DNA from: Octopus vulgaris
Taxonomy: Eukaryota
Direction of reading: 5' to 3'
Length of the DNA: 64,000 nucleotides
Assembly (NCBI GenBank): GCA_951406725.2
Contig: OX597815.1
Location: forward strand, 7,502,001 to 7,566,000
The notes beneath the pieces were generated by a model. It was not told where the DNA came from. It saw nothing but the letters and a program-made list of their open reading frames with translations, and searched no databases. Positions 45,792 through 46,290 of the stretch are shown here, one piece after another (position 1 is the first letter of the stretch; each line of letters begins with the position of its first letter). A program made the position numbers and the translations under genes.

Positions 45792-46290
45792 ATTGAACGC
45801 TACGCATCCTCTTCCAAGTAAGTTTTATCTTAATAATTCTGATGCGCACGCTATACGATCTTTTTACCCTTTCTCTCTCTCTCTCTCACTCCTCCCTTGC
45901 TCACATGGCTCCCACGTGACCATCGGCCACCTTTCTTTCTTCTAACTTGTGTTTCTTTCTTTCTTTCTCTCCGTTGTAGCTGGAACAGGGAAGACGTGTT
46001 CTTGTCTGTCTCCTGTCTAAGCTTGATTTTCGCGTTCGCGCCACCACAACCTCGTTTAGGCTTAGCAGCCCTTCCTGTTTATTTTCACTGTCCCGGTTGT
46101 GCTACCAATTTTGACCCTCCGCGAAATACCAAACTTTATTTAATTTGCTTTGCGGGAGCAACTGTTTTATCAAAAGCGTATATTGTTGTCAAATGCTCGA
46201 AATACGAGATTAGAAAACAGCCAACAACTGATAAAGGGTCGTTCTTTGTGTTACTTCCGTTTTCCATGTTTTTCTCTCCTTGTTTGCATA
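45792..46290 (+). mobile_element. Putative Penelope-like terminal repeat carrying a strand-swapped hammerhead
   Basis: Begins with the ATTGAACGCTACGCATCC..CCAAGTAAG motif shared with 23955, 24241 and 40448. It also shares CACGTGACCATC and CAGCCRACAACTGATRAAG with the 23.5-24.3 kb element. Flanked by microsatellites. Confidence 0.6.
46177..46239 (+). ncRNA. Putative strand-swapped hammerhead ribozyme, G8A core mutation
   Basis: CGTA-TA-TTGTTG ... GCTC-GAAA-TACG ... CAACAA-CTGATAA-A-GGGT. Stem III has 5 bp, stem I has 6 bp and stem II has 4 bp including GU pairs. Confidence 0.68.

Follow-up and report, generated by a model that had tools for sequence, protein, structure and literature searches.

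The closest described relatives of the structure reported here are the type-SGC and type-CSG hammerheads. According to the available parts of the work by Eckert et al. (2023; PMC10085705), type SGC is known only from metatranscriptomes and type CSG only from metagenomes, neither having been found in the genome of a known organism, and block C (2.x-CUGANGA-10.x) is assumed to be uninterruptible, with at most 1-2 inserted nucleotides. The CChMVd (+) hammerhead has an extra A between A9 and G10.1 (PMC3705267). Retrozymes have been proposed to move via a cut, circularised RNA using Penelope-like enzymes (PMC7229834, PMC4209133, bioRxiv 10.64898/2026.07.22.740005). In one Penelope-like element, PAc, hammerhead cutting depended on protein, and insertion in vitro could proceed without such cutting; loss of cutting with a G8C change is also reported (PMC11167929). 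In the accessible portion of Craig et al. (2021; PMC8557442), Naiads are reported without a canonical hammerhead, with half cores flagged, and (TA)n insertion bias, 5' truncation and tandem and inverted copies are given as Penelope-like traits.

We analyzed a 64,000-nucleotide stretch of Octopus vulgaris DNA (contig OX597815.1; hereafter the window, to which all coordinates refer) and searched the 2.8-Gb genome for relatives of a hammerhead-like motif near 46 kb. Judged from its sequence, this motif is likely to be a genomic copy, mutated and probably inactive, of a predicted split-core hammerhead, residing in a non-coding retroelement that is itself likely of the Penelope/Naiad type. More broadly, we lean cautiously toward a joint reading in which the intact form would retain catalysis despite a core strand interrupted at A9/G10.1, two stacked helices clamping the break shut. 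Together with the intact type-CSG forms of nematode and arthropod Naiads it would be the missing Naiad ribozyme. It would also have reached non-coding retrozyme-like repeats as well as a second retrotransposon family outside Penelope, and copies in the genome would preserve a record of its in vivo cuts at their 5' ends.

The likeness to types SGC and CSG extends to the reversed cyclic block order, the conserved core, the short linker from stem I to stem II and an interaction helix that joins the two remaining linkers, here called P4. The 46-kb class differs from type SGC in a predicted opening at A9/G10.1, where two helices would be inserted, and from both types in that thousands of split-fold copies lie in an animal genome (PMC10085705, in the parts available). 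Compared with type SGC (HRIMA-1), the order S, G, C and the I-II interaction helix (P4) were found, and an intact block C, with the stem II strand 0-2 nt after CUGANGA, is not favored, weak downstream pairing being possible in the 46-kb class. Because of this predicted interruption of the block, we set the fold apart from types SGC and CSG, although it is otherwise alike. The CChMVd hammerhead similarly has an A9/G10.1 step that tolerates insertion, but one nucleotide is inserted there, whereas in the split form the chain would be opened and two helices inserted (PMC3705267). Non-LTR retrozymes and Penelope pLTRs resemble the octopus repeats in consisting of non-coding tandem units with one hammerhead each (PMC7229834, PMC4209133, bioRxiv 10.64898/2026.07.22.740005). 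Retrozyme hammerheads are of type I (CGS), often with a weak stem III that needs dimers, and the units are ~300 bp in the 2020 paper, as far as its available text goes (PMC7229834); in contrast, the split family has the reversed order, a 5-bp stem III, a core predicted to be split and units of 0.7-0.9 kb. The 46-kb family shows the (TA)n bias, 5' truncation and tandem and inverted copies of Naiads (PMC8557442), and differs from them in that its unit is non-coding, without the ORF with N-terminal GIY-YIG, CxC and an RT with DKA. No description of a hammerhead split at A9/G10.1 was found in the literature covered, which was largely open-access and comprised main-text parts of Eckert et al. and of the bioRxiv preprint.

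Anatomy of the 46-kb domain

We refer to families by the position in the window of the copy that represents them (37, 46 or 50 kb). The 46-kb repeat copy, its predicted parts and its two counterparts in the window are the following.

45698..46290, +: non-coding repeat unit of ~0.7 kb, here as a decayed copy (ends approximate)
46113..46118, +: helix a, 5' strand GACCCT (partner 46235-46240)
46119..46155, +: helix b, a hairpin with base CCGC 46119-22 / GCGG 46152-55 (93% paired; two-sided change in 3/4 pairs)
46156..46160, +: stem II 10.x strand GAGCA, upstream of the cut site (predicted G10.1 = 46156)
46162..46176, +: P4 5' strand (46162-68), then K-turn-like bulge (the family G at 46172 is A here)
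46177..46188, +: block S, with stem III 16.x, A17 (46182) and stem I 1.x (predicted cut 46182/46183)
46194..46206, +: block G, with stem II 11.x TGCTC, G12-A13-A14 (46199-201) and stem III 15.x
46207..46220, +: non-bulged strand of the K-turn-like motif and P4 3' strand (46214-20); one A fewer than the family
46222..46234, +: stem I 2.x strand and core C3-A9, CTGATAA (G8A at 46233)
46235..46240, +: helix a, 3' strand AGGGTC, beginning right after A9 (the stem II strand of the initial annotation)
37155..37290, +: sister copy from a younger family (top matches 97-100% identical), with intact core and the same predicted split wiring
50170..50262, -: third copy, from a family unrelated in sequence, lying 3' of an ORF remnant (stem II pairs perfectly upstream and cannot form downstream)

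Within 45698..46290, a TA-rich linker is followed by the unit start near 45791, the ribozyme and a shortened 3' part, with (TTA)n and (TA)n as flanks. The ribozyme domain is predicted to extend from 46113 to 46240. Its strands follow the order 10.x / 16.x-H-1.x / 11.x-GAA-15.x / 2.x-CUGANGA, with a 5-nt linker between the 1.x and 11.x strands, and helix b lies flush between helix a and G10.1. P4 has 7-8 bp in both the 46-kb and the 37-kb copy; its register varies from class to class, and it was therefore left out when pairs were counted. In a K-turn, tandem G-A/A-G pairs come after a 3-nt bulge, with a helix on either side. Judged by this consensus, the K-turn-like pattern fits the majority of the 46-kb family, is broken in the 46-kb copy and is absent from the 50-kb family.

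The initial annotation had described the locus as a hammerhead with fully compensatory stems at 46177-46239. Its block order of cut site, GAAA and CUGANGA (S-G-C) was confirmed and is the same in the 37-kb copy, with spacings in the 46-kb and 37-kb copies of 16 vs 15 nt from NUH to GAAA and 25 vs 26 nt from GAAA to CTGA. Stem III (CGTAT 46177-81 / ATACG 46202-06) and stem I (TTGTTG 46183-88 / CAACAA 46222-27) pair as it had proposed, and the NUH site at 46180-46182 is AUA, with A17 at 46182. Its boundaries need to be moved, since the domain is predicted to start at 46113 and the upstream stem II strand GAGCA (46156-60), which pairs perfectly over 5 bp, lies outside the claimed range; an RNA covering 46177-46239 could give a false negative because this strand is absent from it. 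The downstream TTCTTTGTGTTA is indeed common to both copies, a likeness that is partly coincidental in that most aligned family copies have TTCTTTATG.

The 46-kb family has every conserved hammerhead position (C3 U4 G5 A6 N7 G8 A9, G12 A13 A14, A15.1-U16.1 and H17), and the 46-kb copy keeps all of them with the exception of G8: its core at 46228-34 reads CTGATAA, with G8A at 46233 as had been noted. G8A disrupts the C3-G8 pair. The expected family majority, CUGAUGA, was recovered, with G8 in 121 of 131 aligned copies; the 46-kb copy is thus decayed, which agrees with the earlier suggestion that it is probably inactivated. There are eight differences from the family majority in the domain, including G8A, G to A at 46172 and the loss of an A beside P4. 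Because of the change at 46172 and the missing neighboring A, the repair A46233G may by itself be insufficient to restore cutting. The order S-G-C with crossing stems differs from the nested three-way junctions of types I, II and III (CGS, GSC or SCG). Type II and dimeric type I readings were tried by eye and rejected; stems I or III fail in them.

Predicted cutting and the 5' ends of genomic copies

The 46-kb family is, on sequence grounds, probably an active ribozyme family that is predicted to cut. We propose that the cyclic order SGC/CSG/GCS is opened within the core, between A9 and G10.1. Helix a, running from right after A9, would stack flush on hairpin b, which ends right before G10.1, and A9 and G10.1 would therefore meet at the nick as if joined. 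Pairing of the linkers would form P4, the counterpart of the I-II interaction helix in type SGC, accompanied in the 46-kb class by the K-turn-like motif. In intact source elements the RNA would be cut after H17, tandem transcripts giving unit-length RNA. Reverse transcription would start at the TA-rich stretch of the unit, with the enzyme supplied in trans by a Penelope-like element; cut linear RNA would lead to short copies ending just 3' of the cut, and uncut or circularised RNA to long and tandem copies.

The repeats have several properties that bear on this proposal. A TA-rich 3' boundary was common to 68 of 90 copies, and copies were 5'-truncated. The next tandem unit was present at 10 of 60 loci, and inverted partners were also seen. 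Units of ~0.7 kb (46-kb family) and 0.83-0.88 kb (37-kb family) contained no RT-like frame and one hammerhead-like motif each, not of type I.

We determined the 5' ends of 90 copies anchored ~60 nt downstream of the core, 69 of which ended between -300 and +52 (one duplicated locus pair, outside the peak described below, was counted twice). Thirteen of the 69 ends fell at -16..-5 from G12, that is 1-12 nt past the predicted cut at -17/-16, where 2.9 were expected (P ~1e-5 for that window of positions; roughly 3e-4 allowing for ~30 such windows). There were two ends in the 12 nt directly 5' of the predicted cut, and other TA-like sites had no excess. In a set bounded by its pattern, comprising families with different linkers, 25 of 98 ends were at -8..-1. 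The peak lies mostly 6-11 nt 3' of the predicted cut and not at the cut itself. Junctions in the peak abutted a microsatellite more often (10 of 13) than those elsewhere (17 of 56), and target microhomology may therefore contribute. A structure-induced stall should place ends at the 3' edge of the fold and not past its last helix. The pile-up may be taken as indirect support for cutting in vivo. Inverted copies (L064, L101, L136, L156 and L158) have their junctions where the truncation peak lies, within a short stretch just 3' of the predicted cut.

There were 0-6 partial reads matching the 37-kb family among raw RNA reads X21-X23, and 373-673 reads, on both strands, matching the 46-kb family, with no pile-up of starts or ends at the cut. 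The latter reads are mostly 80-95% alike and come from relatives, and the libraries are not of the small-RNA or cyclic-phosphate kind.

It is possible, although we consider it unlikely, that the fold is real and selected and that it cuts only as a dimer or with an element protein, or serves as a binding scaffold for a retroelement enzyme. Closure of the II-P4-III ring looks geometrically tight in a monomer, PAc provides a precedent for cutting only with protein and for a hammerhead that is dispensable in vitro (PMC11167929, in the parts available), and most family copies read through the predicted cut site. Such a role would leave the position of the 5'-end peak, just past the predicted cut, to be accounted for, as well as the retention of the catalytic positions, the NUH site and 5-bp stems III across unrelated families. 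We continue to favor a split-core hammerhead that is predicted to cut.

If cutting is true, the working rule that CUGANGA cannot be parted from its stem II strand would be overturned, and there would be a new opening point beyond the six block permutations. Hammerheads that are not circularly ordered would move from anonymous metatranscriptome RNAs to animal genomes, in thousands of copies, and the absence of hammerheads from descriptor searches of Naiads would be explained. A core with its 5' and 3' ends beside A9/G10.1 would also be a new engineering handle. The pile-up of copy ends would amount to a genomic read-out of hammerhead cutting in Penelope-like transposition, a role called unclear in the available parts of two reports (PMC8557442, PMC11167929).

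The pairing partner of stem II and support for the motif

We compared two possible partners of the strand before GAAA, one upstream of the cut site (GAGCA in the 46-kb copy) and one downstream of A9, as had been proposed earlier. The covariation set was built from 100 position-ordered pattern loci, 57 of which were long enough upstream; four with internal deletions were dropped and the two window copies were added, giving 55 rows, 53 of them distinct. The rows are related and the counts are not independent events, so the significance obtained from the shuffle control is overstated.

With the upstream wiring, 91% of cells were paired in the 53 distinct rows, compared to 39-47% in slid registers. 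Upstream stem II was 94% paired, with two-sided changes AU31/GC18, GC30/CG16 and GC33/AU19 (53 rows), and the strand before GAAA covaries with the upstream strand, as in GAGCA/TGCTC vs GAAGG/CCTTC. Stems I and III were 96% and 94% paired in these rows, with a two-sided change at four of five pairs each. Helix a was 82% paired, its inner four pairs being without two-sided change (53 rows of the 46-kb class). When 12 copies from several unrelated families of the same genome were tried, 11 could be placed, and all 11 had five of five Watson-Crick pairs in upstream stem II; downstream stem II cannot form in four of the 11. The script did not place helix a in three of the 11 copies, and helix a of the 50-kb family was read by eye. 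Helix a and upstream stem II share strands with downstream stem II and are mutually exclusive with it. Together they have a folding energy of about -22 kcal/mol vs about -5.6 for downstream stem II, and with the crossing strands held open their pair probability was 0.88-1.0 vs 0.00. A G to T change at upstream G10.1 was seen to recur in copies of two subfamilies (L075, L098, L139 and L142), with a frequency of 3/101 in the 46-kb family.

These data bear on the claim that stem II is formed by GCTC/GGGT with full compensation. In that pairing two of the pairs are G-U and an additional A is required; it is not compensatory because its 3' strand, AGGGT, is identical in both copies. The proposal that the topology is retained through sequence turnover holds for stems I and III; the stem II partner, and hence the intact SGC topology, is probably wrong. 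Since the strand before GAAA covaries with the upstream strand and the bases after A9 pair with 46113-46118, the core is instead predicted to be open at A9/G10.1 and clamped by two helices.

It could still be argued that the 46-kb class folds as an ordinary type-SGC hammerhead, active through an intact CUGANGA-A-G10.1 strand, with the upstream helices as a switch-like alternative. Downstream stem II is 92% pairable in the 46-kb class, its core-proximal pair is C-G (C11.1-G) in 51 of 53 rows vs 45 of 53 for the upstream G10.1-C11.1, and one extra nucleotide at A9/G10.1 occurs naturally in CChMVd and Penelope hammerheads, in the parts of those reports available (PMC3705267, PMC4209133). However, half of the downstream paired cells (97 of 195) are G-U, a register slid by three is still 80% paired, and, of its two-sided changes, the only one that is frequent (C-G to G-U) can be put down to the other partner of each base. 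The downstream pairing is also out-competed by ~17 kcal/mol, and is impossible in other families and in the Naiad tails seen. We regard this reading as improbable, and prefer the wiring with the upstream strand.

A descriptor requiring only stems I and III found three sites in the window (37233+, 46182+ and 50215-) and none in 60 block-wise dinucleotide shuffles of it. Genome-wide, a core-anchored pattern gave 7,838 matches vs 140 for a reversed-pattern control. The 46-kb repeat family accounts for 3,599 first-look candidates, a figure that is not a copy number. Of the 219 exact matches for this family, G8 was present in 95 of the first 100 listed. The whole core and NUH site were intact in 57 of 84 full-span copies. 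In 131 aligned copies of the 46-kb family, the core decays at about the rate of neighboring positions, and the inserted copies therefore look neutral.

A search with Rfam gave only microsatellite and miRNA noise in the window, among the matches listed (150 of 364), and no hammerhead match in 45790-46295. Plain folding of a 76-nt stretch gave an unremarkable energy (z 0.08). Rfam, covariance models and nested folding miss the motif because its three stems mutually cross. An origin by chance, with fortuitous complementarity in an AT-rich repeat multiplied through its copy number, would fit the unremarkable energy and the lack of an Rfam hammerhead match, but is hardly credible given the empty shuffles, the two-sided changes in every core stem and the presence of one architecture in unrelated families and phyla.

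Naiad tails, related families and other features of the window

Published Naiad tails share the architecture of the 46-kb family with different sequence (PMC8557442); the consensus tails were read by eye and not systematically, and names other than octopus were inferred from file order. All elements of the split wiring are present in the tails of Naiad_Obim and of Naiad_Ovul, the latter marked HHR_half_core, and likewise in three entries from corals and three more located close to the cnidarian part; the wiring is weak in the first consensus entry (PMC8557442, in the part available). Five entries in the nematode/arthropod part appear to show the intact CSG order (PMC8557442), a type previously represented by two metagenome sequences. 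Naiad tails in the bivalve/hemichordate part share another structured-looking motif, without CUGANGA in the parts seen (PMC8557442). The octopus Naiad tail motif occurs 371 times in the genome, with 0 occurrences of the control.

We looked for an autonomous partner of the 46-kb family. No copy of the family was found behind a Naiad ORF. None of 30 GIY-YIG loci examined had the split fold, nearly all being elements with a C-terminal endonuclease, and none of 20 Naiad-tail loci examined had an RT-like frame upstream. An RT fragment in one locus (L002) matched no other locus. A Penelope-like family, presumably Neptune-like, has intact 781-aa frames (RT, CxxC linker and C-terminal GIY-YIG) in many copies (L327, L332 and others), and is therefore probably active. 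The tail of L332 contains a type-I-like U3-A8 hammerhead variant and not the split form.

The 50-kb family has 2,574 first-look candidates, lacks the K-turn-like motif and has two alternative GGGGCC strands upstream (L352 and L353). The ORF end that directly precedes its fold had no significant Pfam or PDB match; we take it to resemble restriction-like-endonuclease (HERO-like) retrotransposons. Another family with the same block order has GGCTG/CAGCC as upstream stem II (L024:951, L031:2426, L039:186 and L058:2786) and frequently lies close to members of the 37-kb and 46-kb families.

The window contains several other repeats and remnants. A SINE-like repeat of 184-185 nt forms tandem dimers and trimers at 29216-29587, 38049-38420, 55447-55986 and 62421-62789. 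A 158-aa frame at 35987-36463 (-) resembles the remnant of a DDE (IS1595-like) transposase. There is also a short interstitial TTAGGG run at 30642-30673, a 2.1-kb (TGG)n array at 41414-43560, and a 103-nt repeat present in three copies at 47451-47757.
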